Shown piece by piece: positions 46,414 to 50,918 of a stretch of DNA of 64,000 nt (position 1 is its first letter; the number at the start of each line of letters is the position of its first letter). The notes under the pieces are model-generated. The model was not told the origin of the DNA, ran no database searches, and was given only the letters and a program-made list of their open reading frames with translations. The position numbers and the translations under genes were made by a program. The stretch is from a virus, in IMG/VR virus record IMGVR_UViG_3300035670_000105, positions 26,163-90,162 of that record; one strand, written 5' to 3'.

Positions 46414-47168
46414 TCAGACGGAGTAGATGAAGCTGTGGGCGATGGTGACGAAATCGAGATTCAGATTTTCGAAGCCCGCGAACAGGCTCCAGATGAGAAT
46501 CACATAACGCGAAAAGTCATCATTGCTGTTGATGAGGACTTGCGCATTGTTCCCGCCGACACCAATGCCGATTGCCTGCGGCCCGAAGAACATCGCTGTA
46601 GCAGCTCGGGTGCTCTTCGCGGTGTTGGCCGAGAAGCCCGACGCACCATCAATCGACACCGAATAGTTATATTCGGGGACGTTAGTCGACTCGAAGAAGC
46701 GACACCCCTCAAACAGAAATCCCTGCGGCATCGTTGGCGCTCCGGCTACAAAGCCGGCTTGGCCATAGGCGGGGCCCATTCCCAGGAAATTCGATGCGTT
46801 AGGCGCCATGAATGGCTGCATCGGATTCACCATCCCGTTGCCAGGATAGCGTGCGATCTCCCTGAAATCTTCGTCCTGCCTGAGGTGCATGAGGAAGGCA
46901 GGATCGACCAGTGCTCGATAGTAACCATCCGCAAACGTCGGGACGTTGCGAGCACGCATATCGGTGACGACCTTGAGTAGATCGTTCTTCACCGAGAACT
47001 TGGCCTGGTTCTCATCACCAGCACCGGAGACATCATAGCCAGGTGTTGCCAGACCGGCTTCACTCAGGCCGCCAGGGAAGTAGTAACCACCCTGCTCTTC
47101 ATTGGCTTGACCGCGAGAGTAAGCCTTGTAGAGTTCGTTGATGAACACACGATCGCGCCAGCGGCGGT
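46414..47168 (-). CDS. Major capsid protein, exon 3
   Basis: Joining T|AC gives ...LLDD-Y-RRWRDRVF...; ends NDDFSRY..IWSLFAGF. Confidence 0.88.
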
Positions 47169-48373
47169 CTACCGAACCCGCTTTGGGAAGCGAGCCGCGG
47201 GGCTCTTTATCCCCGCGTCTACCCTTTGTCATCGAGTAGAGTCAGACTATATCTTCATCCGCTTTCAAGTGCTCGTCCCACTACGCGACCTCGGTATTGA
47301 GGCCATGGAAAGACTCACGGATACGATGAGCGACGCTGAAATCAGCGCTCTCTACGGCCTCACGAGAACCGCTGCTACCCACGCCAGGAAGCAGCTAGGT
47401 GTGAAGTCGTATGCGGAGAAGCACGGCAAGCGTCGCTACCGCGACAGCTACGAGCCAAAGCCCGGTGCCAAGCGTGTCTTCTCCCATCGCCTTTCCGGTG
47501 TTGACGAGCACTACTTCAGTTCCATTGGAACTGAAGACAGGGCCTACTGGCTTGGCTTCTTTCTTGCAGATGGCTGGATCGTCACGGAGAAAGGGACCCC
47601 CACTGGCTTTGCCATCGCCCTGCACGAGCGAGACAAAGAGGCCCTGCAGGACTTACAGAACCGCCTTGGTGGAAGCAACATGCTCCGAAGAACCAGGCCA
47701 GGCAGCAACCTACTGCAACTCAAATTGACCTCAGGCGTAGCTGCGAGACAGCTCATCCTTCACGGGGTCGTCCCCCGAAAGTCAAGAGTCGCCACTCTTC
47801 CCAAGCTATCCGACGAACTGATGCCCCACTTAATCCGGGGCTACTTCGACGGTGACGGGTCTATCAGCGTAAGAGGCGTCACGCTAACTATGGATTTCAC
47901 CTCTGGTAGCAAGGTTTTACTTGACCAGATAAGAGTCCATCTTGAGCGTGTGGCTGGCGTCAAACCAAACCTTACACCTGACCGCGCCTCTTGGAAGTTG
48001 CGTTTTTACGCAGAGAACGCTGTTCGCCTCGGCTGCTATATATATGGGCGTCCAGCCCATAACCTGTTCTGCCTTAGTAGAAAGAAGCAGAAATTCCTGT
48101 CTTATCTTGAAACGGATGCGGGGCACTCGTGGGAGCAATTACTGCCCGTTCTGGGCTCGGCTCCTAGTCGTTGAACCTTCCGTCCTGTTCCCAGGAGGGC
48201 TTGGCTGCTGATTACCCATGCGGCGTGGATCTTTTCAAGCCGTCGCGTCTGCCCTCTCAGGCTCCGCTGTGGCGACCCAGCTTTTTCCCTTGCTGAAGGG
48301 GGAAGGGCTTCCAGCAATTCACCCCGTATTGCCCTGACAGTTACCTGTCAGGCGACCACCAGCCTTTCGGCCG
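47169..48373 (-). mobile_element. Group I intron 2 of the capsid gene (1205 nt), carrying a homing endonuclease in L8
   Basis: Exon U / terminal G; P AATTGCTGGAA 48309-48319; Q AATCAGCAGCCAAG 48200-48213; R GTTCAACGACTA 48165-48176; S AAGATATAGTCTG 47243-47255; P1 with U.G pair. Confidence 0.93.
47305..48174 (+). CDS. Double-motif LAGLIDADG homing endonuclease, antisense to its intron
   Basis: YWLGFFLADGWI and HLIRGYFDGDGSI; N-terminal HTH-like part; alternative GTG start at 47269. Confidence 0.9.
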   Translation: MERLTDTMSDAEISALYGLTRTAATHARKQLGVKSYAEKHGKRRYRDSYEPKPGAKRVFSHRLSGVDEHYFSSIGTEDRAYWLGFFLADGWIVTEKGTPTGFAIALHERDKEALQDLQNRLGGSNMLRRTRPGSNLLQLKLTSGVAARQLILHGVVPRKSRVATLPKLSDELMPHLIRGYFDGDGSISVRGVTLTMDFTSGSKVLLDQIRVHLERVAGVKPNLTPDRASWKLRFYAENAVRLGCYIYGRPAHNLFCLSRKKQKFLSYLETDAGHSWEQLLPVLGSAPSR

Positions 48374-48779
48374 AGTCATCGAGCAGAGTGAGTGAACCAA
48401 TGCTCTGGTGGAAGACGCCGATGTTGCCAGTATCCAGCAACAGGCGCTGAGCGGTGAGCAGGTTTTCCCGGCTCACCTTGAAGGTGCTGGGCTGATCGGG
48501 CTCCACCGGATCTGCGGGGCCCGTATATTCATGAAGCGTCACCAAGACCTTCTGCTTGGTGATGTTCCGGCTGCTGGCAGTGCCGATGGTTTGATCAGGA
48601 TTCCGCTGACGGGTTTCCTTAGAACCAGGCGCTCCCCAGTAGCTATAACGATCAAGCTGAACTGTCTGTCCTGGCATCTTGCTAAAGTCGTGAACTACGA
48701 CCGGCTCGATTGCCATCTCGGCCACATAAGTGGGGTGCGGCCTATAAAGCTCAGCCCCAAGAATCTTGGGGAAATCACT
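48374..48779 (-). CDS. Major capsid protein, exon 2 (N4-gp56-like, HK97 fold)
   Basis: SDFPKILGAELYRPHP...DFSKMPGQTVQLDRY. Confidence 0.88.
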
Positions 48780-49129
48780 CAAGGGATCCCTGGTTTCCCA
48801 GGGGCTTGGACCATCTCATCATCCTCCACCGTTGAGGATGTCGGGCGCTCGTGCTGGTTATTAAGGGGGCTGAACCCCTCCAGTGGCCTCTGCACCTTCC
48901 GGCGGTGTACCGCCGGCTTGGCTCAGGATTACCCGTGCCTGCGCTTCTGAGACGCAAGCACTTTCAGGCACACCAGCGGCAGTGGATGCTGCAGCTGTCG
49001 CTGGTGCTCAGTTGTCAAGGTTCCCAGCTGCTGCTGGTCTGCTCAGAAGTGATGCCGATGGGGCTTCCCTGAATTCACCCGATGCTCACTCGACCGTTGC
49101 CGATCGAGGGGACAGTGTGAGGTTCACCT
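48780..49129 (-). ncRNA. Group I intron 1 of the capsid gene (350 nt, ORF-less ribozyme)
   Basis: Exon U / terminal G; P AATTCAGGGAA 49065-49075; Q AATCCTGAGCCAAG 48917-48930; R GTGCAGAGGCCA 48884-48895; S ATGAGATGGTCC 48808-48819. Confidence 0.9.
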
Positions 49130-49141
49130 ATCAATCCACAA
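49130..49141 (-). CDS. Major capsid protein, exon 1 (TTG TGG ATT GAT = MWID)
   Basis: GGAGG SD at 49153-49157; joins in frame to SDFPK; spliced CDS is 1173 nt = 390 aa. Confidence 0.8.
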
Positions 49142-49210
49142 AACGGAAAGCGCCTCCTGCGCGAATTCGGTGTGGAGGCAACCGGGGTTGTTCCCGTGTG
49201 CCTTACGGCG

Positions 49211-49226
49211 GATGGTATGTACCCTT
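49211..49226. promoter_or_regulatory. Back-to-back motif variants: CATACCATC (-, capsid) and TACCCT (+, degenerate LAGLIDADG)
   Basis: gatggtatg at 49211-49219 abuts taccct at 49220-49225, 24 nt before ATG 49250. Confidence 0.55.
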
Positions 49227-49249
49227 ATGCCTGTGTAAGAGCAACTGCA

Positions 49250-50104
49250 ATGGCTGGCACGCCACGGACAATCCTCAACCCCTATGAATCGGCGGCCTTG
49301 ACGCGACTGGTGATGTCCTTCTGTTTGGGCAAGGGCTCGCTCTGCCTGTACAGCCGTTGCTATGTCCTGCAGATCGCCCAACCCAATCGCGCTGGCGACT
49401 ACGCCCACTACCAGTGGCGGCGCATCTGCCAGTTCATTCCGACCGCCAAGGCACCGCGCTTCCATCCCCTCGGGCCCGATGGCGAGGGGGAGGGAGATGA
49501 TCGCGGCCAGTGGCGGCTGCGCATCACCAGCCGCTGGTTTGAGACGGCCTACAACATGCTCTATCCGCTGAGCGGTGCGGATCCCGAGAGTGGCTTTCGG
49601 CCGTTCCGCATCGAGCAGCCGGCGCTGGAGTTGCTCGGCGCAGAGGCCATCGCGTCACTGTGGGCGGATCGCGGCCGCGTCCTGCGCGGCACTGGAGCAC
49701 TCAAGGGCCAGCTGAACCTCAGCCGCATCTCCTTTGAAGAAGCGGATCTACTGGCTGCCTGGATCAGCCGGCTGACGGGTGCCAGCGGTGAAGTGGACCG
49801 CAGCCCCCGCAACGCCAATGCCCCGATGCTTTTCCTGGATCAGGACGATCTGCTGGCGATGCTGCAGGCCTTGCGCCCCACCTGGATGGCGCAGGCTCCC
49901 TGCCTGCTGAGCAAGTTCCAGCCGGAGCTGCCGCCGCCATCGAAGGCAATCCCGCGTCGCTCGCGCCGCCGTCGCCTGGCACTGTCGGCTGCGATCGAAT
50001 CAGGCCCTGCCGGTGTGGCGCCGGTGCCAGCGGAGCGGAAGCGCAACCGGCGCATCCCGGTACAACGGCCGATGCTGCCGCCGCTGCTCAACCAAGCAAG
50101 TTGA
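49250..50104 (+). CDS. Degenerate LAGLIDADG (I-SceI/LAGLIDADG_2-like) protein lacking catalytic Asp residues
   Basis: SFCLGKG and AIASLWADRG at the two motif positions; spacing and intervening pattern fit the fold; basic C-tail. Confidence 0.65.
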   Translation: MAGTPRTILNPYESAALTRLVMSFCLGKGSLCLYSRCYVLQIAQPNRAGDYAHYQWRRICQFIPTAKAPRFHPLGPDGEGEGDDRGQWRLRITSRWFETAYNMLYPLSGADPESGFRPFRIEQPALELLGAEAIASLWADRGRVLRGTGALKGQLNLSRISFEEADLLAAWISRLTGASGEVDRSPRNANAPMLFLDQDDLLAMLQALRPTWMAQAPCLLSKFQPELPPPSKAIPRRSRRRRLALSAAIESGPAGVAPVPAERKRNRRIPVQRPMLPPLLNQAS

Positions 50105-50918
50105 GTGCTTCCAGGAAGTAGGGGGACTGGGCGAAGCGCCTCTGGCCCGTCCCCTCCAGATCAGCGCTGACGGCCTGGGCGGCTGGCCTGGACTTGAGGC
50201 TGCTGCCCAGATCGGCGATCAAGGTGTTGAGGTTCTGGCTGCTGCTGATCGCCGCGGCCGTCAATGGCGACACGTTGCTGCTGGTGCCGGCGAGCAGGGG
50301 GGTGAGATCAGCGCCGCTGCCGCCGTTGCGTGCTGCCAGGACCGCCAGCAGGGCGCCTGCATCGCCGTTGCCATCGGATGACACGGCTCCGCCGCCGGGA
50401 GCGGCTACCGCAGGCGCTGGAGCGCTGCTGGCGGGGACTGGTGTACCGCTGTTGCCCGGGTTGGGCGCAGCTCCCAGTCGTCGGTTGTAGAAGTCGAGGA
50501 GCCCCTGGCGGTCTTTCACCGGCTGGCCGTAGAAGCTCTTGCCGGCGCTGGTGGGCAGGGACGCCCACTCCGGTGCCAGGCGATTGAGCGCAGCGCCGTC
50601 GAGCGGCTTGGTGGGATCGACGCCGCGGCGACGCACCAACTCCAGGGCGGCCCTGTCCTGGTTTTCCGGCGTCATCGCCAGGTTCTGGCCGCTGTTGGCG
50701 CCCTTCCAGGTGGGGGAGAGGAACTGATAGGCGCCGGTGGCATCCGAGGCGTAGCCGCCGCTGCTCACCACCCGCCCCGGGTGGGGCTTGGATGGATCCA
50801 CCTTCTGATACCCGAAGGTGATGTCATAGCGAGGGCGACTGGCCTTGCTGTCCCAGGTGCCCTCGGCGTAGCTGATGGTGTCCAGCAGGGCGCGTTGTTG
50901 CGCCGTGATGCCACTCAC
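50088..50918 (-). CDS. Lambda-lysozyme-like (GH104) muramidase plus low-complexity tail
   Basis: RALLDTISYAEGT, ATGAYQFL, PENQDRAA, EWASLP. Confidence 0.9.
   Translation of the reverse strand: MSGITAQQRALLDTISYAEGTWDSKASRPRYDITFGYQKVDPSKPHPGRVVSSGGYASDATGAYQFLSPTWKGANSGQNLAMTPENQDRAALELVRRRGVDPTKPLDGAALNRLAPEWASLPTSAGKSFYGQPVKDRQGLLDFYNRRLGAAPNPGNSGTPVPASSAPAPAVAAPGGGAVSSDGNGDAGALLAVLAARNGGSGADLTPLLAGTSSNVSPLTAAAISSSQNLNTLIADLGSSLKSRPAAQAVSADLEGTGQRRFAQSPYFLEALNLLG

Follow-up and report, generated by a model that had tools for sequence, protein, structure and literature searches.

Our analysis concerns the major capsid gene of an uncultured cyanophage, a relative of Synechococcus phage S-EIVl. 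The gene lies in a stretch of 64,000 nucleotides (hereafter the window), which comprises bases 26163-90162 of the 90,162-bp IMG/VR virus record IMGVR_UViG_3300035670_000105, and thus forms the right-hand 64 kb of the 90-kb genome, the completeness of which is 100% according to CheckV. The sequence evidence gives good support to the notion that two group I introns split this gene, which is read on the minus strand, the first of them after only four codons (Table 1). The joined exons form a coding sequence (CDS) of 1173 nt for 390 amino acids, the sole stop codon of which is the terminal one, and the unspliced RNA reads MWIDR and then stops at an in-frame UGA (49126-49124). An earlier note on this DNA had proposed a major capsid gene with two group I introns and a 4-codon first exon. 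Its exon and intron coordinates and sequences were all correct when the window was read again, and we likewise reproduced the uninterrupted joined frame and the stop after five codons upon retention of intron 1. The note had missed, however, an antisense LAGLIDADG homing endonuclease gene that resides in intron 2.

Capsid identity and colinearity with uninterrupted homologues

The assignment of the product as a major capsid protein, also made in the earlier note, agrees with both profile and fold comparisons. Residues 34-385 match PHROG 1357 (major head protein) with an E value of 4.8e-20, the part encoded by exon 3 matches the same family on its own (E 7.1e-13), and a profile search of the PDB returned a major capsid protein (E 0.0023). 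The Pfam search of the protein gave no match; Pfam has no model for the S-EIVl-like capsid family. The fold was predicted with AlphaFold for P0001, a 96%-identical homologue, and the model reached a predicted local distance difference test (pLDDT) score of 80.6 with an alignment of 39 sequences; a first model based on a shallow alignment had a pLDDT of 32 and was set aside. All of the top Foldseek matches to the P0001 model were phage capsids (E 1.8e-12 to 1e-8), led by those of cyanophages P-SCSP1u, Pan3 and A4 (E 1.8e-12 to 1e-10). Profile and predicted fold together support an HK97-fold major capsid protein as the product of the split gene.

The exon structure is borne out by the relatives in which this gene is not split. 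A search with exon 3 collected 774 relatives, mostly of 379-397 amino acids, and the best of them, P0001 (390 amino acids), starts with MWIDSDFPKILGAELYRPHP and reads LLDDYRRWRDRVF without interruption, so that the contiguous MWIDSDFPK N-terminus and the DDYRRWRD block anticipated by the earlier note are both found in an intron-less homologue. The spliced protein of the window is identical to P0001 at 374 of 390 positions, including all of residues 1-159; the identity is 100% for exon 2 (residues 5-139 of P0001) and 94% for exon 3. On the DNA level the intron-less relatives L003-L006 share the TTG start and all 12 nt of exon 1, which run straight into the Ser-Asp-Phe codons. As is characteristic of group I introns, removal of the inserts restores a gene colinear with its uninterrupted homologues, and does so exactly at both junctions. 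Judging from these comparisons, the contiguity of intron-less homologues exactly across both junctions is far beyond chance.

The same holds for a cultured phage: in S-EIVl, the capsid protein of which is 62% identical, the gene is uninterrupted and begins VFIDTDFPK directly after a stop codon. The 4-codon exon may thus be taken as real, because the intron-less relatives and S-EIVl encode the same start contiguously. One could argue that exon 1 is not used at all and that translation starts at the in-frame TTG 48782-48780 (MSDFPK...), intron 1 being an element of the 5' leader, and the listing of open reading frames (ORFs) does yield an ORF that begins at this TTG. However, the three bases in question are the final three bases of the ribozyme and have no Shine-Dalgarno sequence, whereas the one that precedes exon 1 is common to the intron-less relatives (the GG(A/G)GG block and its spacing to the start are kept in L003-L006). 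Moreover, (M/V)-(W/F)-I-D stands ahead of xDFPK in the intron-less relatives and in S-EIVl, the N-termini of the homologues being MWID, MFID or VFID, and residues W2 and D4 are invariant across 13 aligned homologues. A start at TTG 48782 is therefore very unlikely, and the start in exon 1 is to be preferred.

We also observed that the GenBank record of S-EIVl (KJ410740.1, 60784-62010) leaves the intact capsid gene with its non-ATG start unannotated. In its place, a 157-residue 3' fragment and an overlapping ORF on the opposite strand are annotated.

Table 1. Features of the capsid locus in coordinates of the window
Feature	Position	Strand	Basis and remarks
Shine-Dalgarno sequence AGGAGG	49158-49153	minus	11 nt 5' of the TTG start; sequence reading
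Exon 1, TTG TGG ATT GAT (M-W-I-D), 4 codons	49141-49130	minus	same 12 nt in intron-less relatives
Intron 1, 350 nt	49129-48780	minus	starts AGG TGA, ends CCCTTG; RF00028 match
Exon 2, codons 5-139 and first base of codon 140	48779-48374	minus	AGT GAT TTC ... GAT GAC T
Intron 2, 1205 nt, within codon 140 (phase 1)	48373-47169	minus	ends GGTAG; RF00028 match
Exon 3, remainder of codon 140 to stop	47168-46414	minus	begins AC CGC CGC TGG
LAGLIDADG homing endonuclease gene, 289 aa, ATG 47305 to TGA 48172-48174	47305-48174	plus	Pfam, PHROG; antisense to intron and capsid gene
Promoter-like TTGTCA-18 nt-TATCTT (hypothetical)	47226-47255	plus	consensus scan; 5' of endonuclease gene
Weak terminator-like hairpin and T-run (hypothetical)	48216-48238	plus	consensus scan; 42 nt past endonuclease stop
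310-aa ORF, divergent from capsid gene	49172-50104	plus	protein conserved 47-52% at same place in intron-less relatives
20-nt block CTTACACAGGCATAAGGGTA	49220-49239	minus	about 80 nt 5' of capsid start; near-invariant where flanks diverged
Lysozyme/endolysin-like N-terminal domain gene, low-complexity C-terminus	50088-50918	minus	phrog_90, 2.7e-24

Ribozyme structure and the antisense endonuclease gene

The claim that the inserts are group I introns agrees with the covariance model RF00028 (gathering threshold 50 bits), which matches both of them. In the Rfam scan of the entire 64-kb window at the gathering threshold intron 1 was the sole match (70.6 bits, E 6.7e-16), and a local search brought up intron 2 with 47.3 bits (E 1.3e-10). 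No group I intron beyond these two was found when the whole genome was scanned, and both RF00028 matches lie on the capsid strand. In both introns a U precedes the 5' splice site and a G ends the intron, as is typical of this class and as the note had stated. The U.G pairs are U49130 with G49113 in intron 1 and U48374 with G48357 in intron 2, and the terminal bases are G48780 and G47169, respectively.

The proposed P1 helices (GAU with GUC and GACU with GGUC, each with its U.G pair) and the P10 of intron 1 are present as well. P1 of intron 1 extends over 49132-49111 (GAU/AGGUGA-ACC-UCAC(A)CUGUC, the slash marking the splice site), and the CACU next to it pairs with AGUG, the first four bases of exon 2. 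This 4-bp P10 exists because codon 5 is AGT in the window, the intron-less relatives having TCC at this position. In intron 2 the exon strand 48378-48374 of P1 pairs with the guide sequence 48357-48353 (UGACU/CGGCC-GAAA-GGCUG(GU)GGUCG), P10 has 3 bp, and P8 (48118-48106 with 47269-47256) carries a loop of 836 nt, which houses the endonuclease gene; intron 1 is without such a gene. The alternative P1 that Infernal placed in intron 1, with a splice site after U49164, was ruled out, as the intron-less alleles are contiguous through TTGTGGATTGAT.

The predicted core helices P3-P8 are supported by covariation in both intron families, albeit in small samples of four and three sequences. The introns at the codon-4 site (window, L085, L086 and L084) share a common RNAalifold structure of 102 pairs, 28 of which are changed on both sides, one of these in P1. 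For the codon-140 introns, taken without the P8 loop, the fold has 114 pairs, 21 of them compensatory.

The 289-residue ORF in the P8 loop matches LAGLIDADG_3 (PF14528) with E 1.8e-14 and 54.2 bits against a cut-off of 22.5, as well as phrog_4645 (E 2.6e-33), and harbors two motifs, LGFFLADGW and GYFDGDGS, the aspartates of which are invariant in 12 homologues. The sense strand of intron 2 has no comparable ORF, and the endonuclease gave no match when its sequence was searched against the PDB. By its sequence this is an intact double-motif LAGLIDADG homing endonuclease gene. Its start codon is not conserved among relatives, ATG 47305 being the first ATG within the P8 loop. At its other end the gene runs into the ribozyme: the last 23 codons and the TGA (48106-48174) are the reverse complement of the core, from the 5' strand of P8 through P3' to the 5' strand of P7. 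The DAGHSW tail is the complement of CCACGAGUGCCCCGCAUC and PSR-stop that of the conserved UCAACGACUAGG; the tail of the endonuclease is thus conserved because it is complementary to the ribozyme core. Introns at the same site, likewise with an antisense endonuclease, were found in seven further contigs (L083, which is the same contig as L153, L125, L151, L152, L154, L155 and L156). Their endonucleases are 36-56% identical to that of the window, and the antisense orientation is seen in all eight contigs examined.

An endonuclease gene in this orientation would need a promoter of its own. The two promoter-like hexamers upstream of it are complementary to the 9-nt P9 loop and to the core AAGAUA, both are invariant in five of seven related introns, and the P9 stem between them covaries. 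The consensus scans for promoters and terminators, taken alone, gave no excess over shuffled controls. As a hypothesis, the conservation of the hexamers fits an antisense promoter, and it fits a constraint on the RNA equally well. A further observation concerns the conserved P9 loop itself, GAUGACAAA (47225-47233, minus strand), which repeats GAUGAC, the six exon bases (48375-48380) that precede the 5' splice-site U. The loop could serve as a mimic of the P1 substrate; more simply, it could be the antisense gene's -35 box.

Allele distribution, mobility and alternative readings

Alleles with and without the introns coexist in metagenomes. The best 80 loci retrieved with a full-length capsid profile are all intron-less, a C-terminal profile yielded about 90 contigs, two of which carry introns, and the related loci without introns number more than 130. 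An independent marine study contains contigs with each intron and both of its junctions (99% identical; 1 and 13 mismatches), and exact intron-less joints at both sites occur in the same study and in others. One 4.2-kb contig is without both introns, its exon 3 being 99% identical to that of the window and its exon 2 only about 90%. Homologous introns at the same two sites are found in phages whose capsid proteins are about 61-97% identical to P0001. Intron 1 is 98.6% identical to the same-site intron of L085, the identity of the CDSs being 87.9%, with the mismatches clustered beside the intron sites. This pattern suits homing with co-conversion and a recent lateral spread of intron 1, and a constraint on the ribozyme could contribute to it. 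Endonuclease-driven homing is likely for intron 2, and hitch-hiking by co-conversion is plausible for intron 1. The endonuclease would presumably cut the intron-less capsid alleles of co-infecting relatives, and repair would copy intron 2 with the flanking exon and possibly also intron 1, which is 406 bp away.

The capsid family of S-EIVl-like phages as a whole is a hot spot for such insertions. In related contigs we mapped about 11 intron sites, nearly all with RF00028 matches: codons 4/5, 7, 17/18, 31/32, 36 (in L084), 37, 48/49, 108/109, 133, 140 and 216/217; an additional intron of L156 near codon 35 could be placed approximately, short of base resolution. A single gene may have up to four introns (L084, L143). 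The introns at codons 37, 48 and 108 have putative endonuclease ORFs in sense orientation, the latter two with LAGLIDADG-like motifs.

Several side observations concern further introns. The small introns of this capsid family, of about 230-250 nt at phase-0 sites (L143 1-1151; L084 947-3117; L086 9275-10188) begin with UAA, and therefore the unspliced RNA would end translation exactly at the splice site. In L084 the codons 37-48 form an internal micro-exon of 12 codons. Many other metagenome contigs, some of them at much higher depth, resemble intron 2 in its P6-P7 core alone (48163-48304, minus strand), their peripheral loops being different; the communities sampled thus contain a large family of related introns at other places.

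Taken together, the data make it highly probable that the two inserts function as group I introns and that the capsid protein is produced only after their splicing. Guanosine would attack after the U of the U.G pair in P1 and the exons would be ligated after the terminal G at each intron, so that the late pre-mRNA would lose both introns by two transesterifications each and give the 390-residue protein. Several points weigh against this conclusion. The score of intron 2 is 2.7 bits short of the Rfam gathering threshold; it is just below 50 bits because of the 836 nt inserted in the P8 loop, and the homologues of intron 2 score 37-50 bits. The exon portion of P1 is short, 3 bp in intron 1 and 5 bp in intron 2. 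The promoter and terminator of the antisense gene are consensus matches, the conservation of which could stem from the ribozyme alone. Finally, splicing is deduced from evidence at the DNA level, and the genome comes from a metagenome, its viability being assumed.

The last point would also suit a dead gene, with the phage in decay or the insertions no longer able to splice, given that the genome is known from metagenomes only and as DNA. However, none of the three exons is damaged and their identity to the intron-less homologue is 96%, the conserved ribozyme cores show compensatory changes, several runs, one independent study among them, yielded the same assembled structure, and no second capsid gene was seen in a genome that CheckV rates as complete. 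We consequently consider decay highly improbable. It is harder still to believe in an assembly chimera in which foreign intron-like DNA was joined into the capsid gene. Related intron cores do occur on many other contigs of the same metagenomes, but each exon-intron junction is bridged by independent contigs with 0-1% mismatches, and the insertions are base-exact relative to the intron-less alleles.

A different proposal, raised in the earlier note, adds to functional splicing instead of competing with it, namely that splicing is a timing gate. The 5' splice site of intron 1 is 12 nt from the start, in the footprint of the initiating ribosome; initiation and P1 formation would exclude each other and the capsid output would be set by the splicing rate. 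The geometry is in accordance with this, since the Shine-Dalgarno sequence, start codon, splice site and guide sequence fall within about 50 nt and the UGA is located 4-6 nt into intron 1, and the 4-codon site is filled in at least five divergent alleles. On the other hand, the predicted pairing of the Shine-Dalgarno sequence and start codon is unchanged between the leader folded before and after splicing, and most relatives have no intron and thus no evident regulatory need. Furthermore, the intron sites that were checked fall within blocks of invariant residues, the site of intron 2 being in the invariant DDYRRW codons, as is expected of selfish homing targets. Regulatory gating by splicing is possible on geometric grounds, and on balance we think it unlikely.

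Equally doubtful is a wider version, in which intron 2 is a composite of both strands: the endonuclease promoter, with its -35 box in the P9 loop and its -10 box in the core AAGAUA, and the last 23 codons with the stop would be placed on the complement of the ribozyme core. Together with a splice site of intron 1 in the ribosome footprint, such an arrangement could keep the endonuclease early and the capsid late in expression and tie the capsid yield to splicing. If it were true, a single stretch of DNA would specify a catalytic RNA on one strand and, on the opposite one, a unit for transcription and translation.

Among the neighbouring features, the divergent 310-residue ORF has no Pfam or PHROG match, and in more distant relatives there are two tandem paralogues of it. 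It was considered as a free-standing nuclease for collaborative homing of intron 1 and was ruled out, since it matches no nuclease family and keeps its position in intron-less relatives. The block CTTACACAGGCATAAGGGTA could be a late promoter or operator; as a repeated promoter motif it was rejected, because it occurs only once in the window. The 3' end of the lysozyme/endolysin-like gene overlaps the 3' end of the 310-residue ORF by 17 nt.

Significance and relation to known systems

Gene callers split or truncate the capsid gene of the window, and even the intron-less gene of S-EIVl is mis-annotated. Therefore, classification or counting based on capsid genes misses or fragments this gene in a widespread cyanophage lineage. 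The series of about 11 sites, with sense, antisense or absent endonucleases and with plus and minus alleles, could be of use for the study of homing, exon co-conversion and competition upon co-infection, and the 12-nt exon 1 is a convenient case for translation initiation versus ribozyme folding.

Phage T4 has mobile group I introns in td, nrdB and nrdD, associated with I-TevI, I-TevII and I-TevIII, which home by double-strand-break repair with exon co-conversion (PMC2988022); there too the reading frames of the endonucleases reach into the sequence of the ribozyme core (PMC3073962, Table 1). However, in T4 the endonuclease genes point the same way as their hosts, which are genes of nucleotide metabolism, whereas in the window the gene is antisense and the core overlap is on the complementary strand. 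Antisense endonuclease genes are described for group I introns of nuclear rDNA (I-DirII of Didymium; L2066; PMC3073962, PMC9548176). As in intron 2, the endonuclease gene lies opposite the ribozyme and its own promoter is needed, but these systems differ in the eukaryotic Pol I / Pol II, the His-Cys box enzymes, spliceosomal introns and polyadenylation. In cyanophages, introns were reported in psbA of S-PM2 (cited in PMC3706429) and, with I-PfoP3I, in the Pf-WMP3 gene for DNA polymerase (PMC3428280). These are also group I introns in protein-coding genes, although the host genes are others and the endonuclease of Pf-WMP3 is sense-oriented. The endonuclease of the S-PM2 psbA intron is free-standing. 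Neither capsid genes nor antisense ORFs come up in a 2014 review on the group I introns of bacteria.

The closest parallels are found in the capsid genes of other phages. Splicing of the capsid gene was shown by RT-PCR and N-terminal sequencing in mycobacteriophage LittleE of Cluster J (Pope et al., 2013; PMC3706429), the capsid intron of which has a LAGLIDADG-like ORF on the bottom strand, and the same paper cites a capsid-gene intron in lactococcal phage Tuc2009. LittleE and the window have in common a capsid gene with a group I intron (a probable one in LittleE), the U before the 5' splice site, the G at the end, a LAGLIDADG ORF on the opposite strand and intron-less relatives. Contrastingly, LittleE has one capsid intron for which splicing was shown, and the window has two, one of them four codons from the start, which are read from DNA; host phylum and phage lineage differ as well. 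LittleE was not among the 20 matches listed, ahead of 141 further records, when the window endonuclease was compared with cultured phages by tblastn (best listed identity 34%). In crAss-like phages of the Delta and Zeta groups capsid genes are split by up to four group I introns, one gene being in five pieces (Yutin et al., 2021; PMC7886860). There are likewise multiple group I introns, recognized computationally from endonuclease domains, but phage order and capsid family are different, and an antisense endonuclease or a micro-exon is not described there. Capsid-gene introns are thus already published for LittleE and the crAss-like phages. The known principles of group I intron biology are unchanged, and the window is a new example of a published layout.

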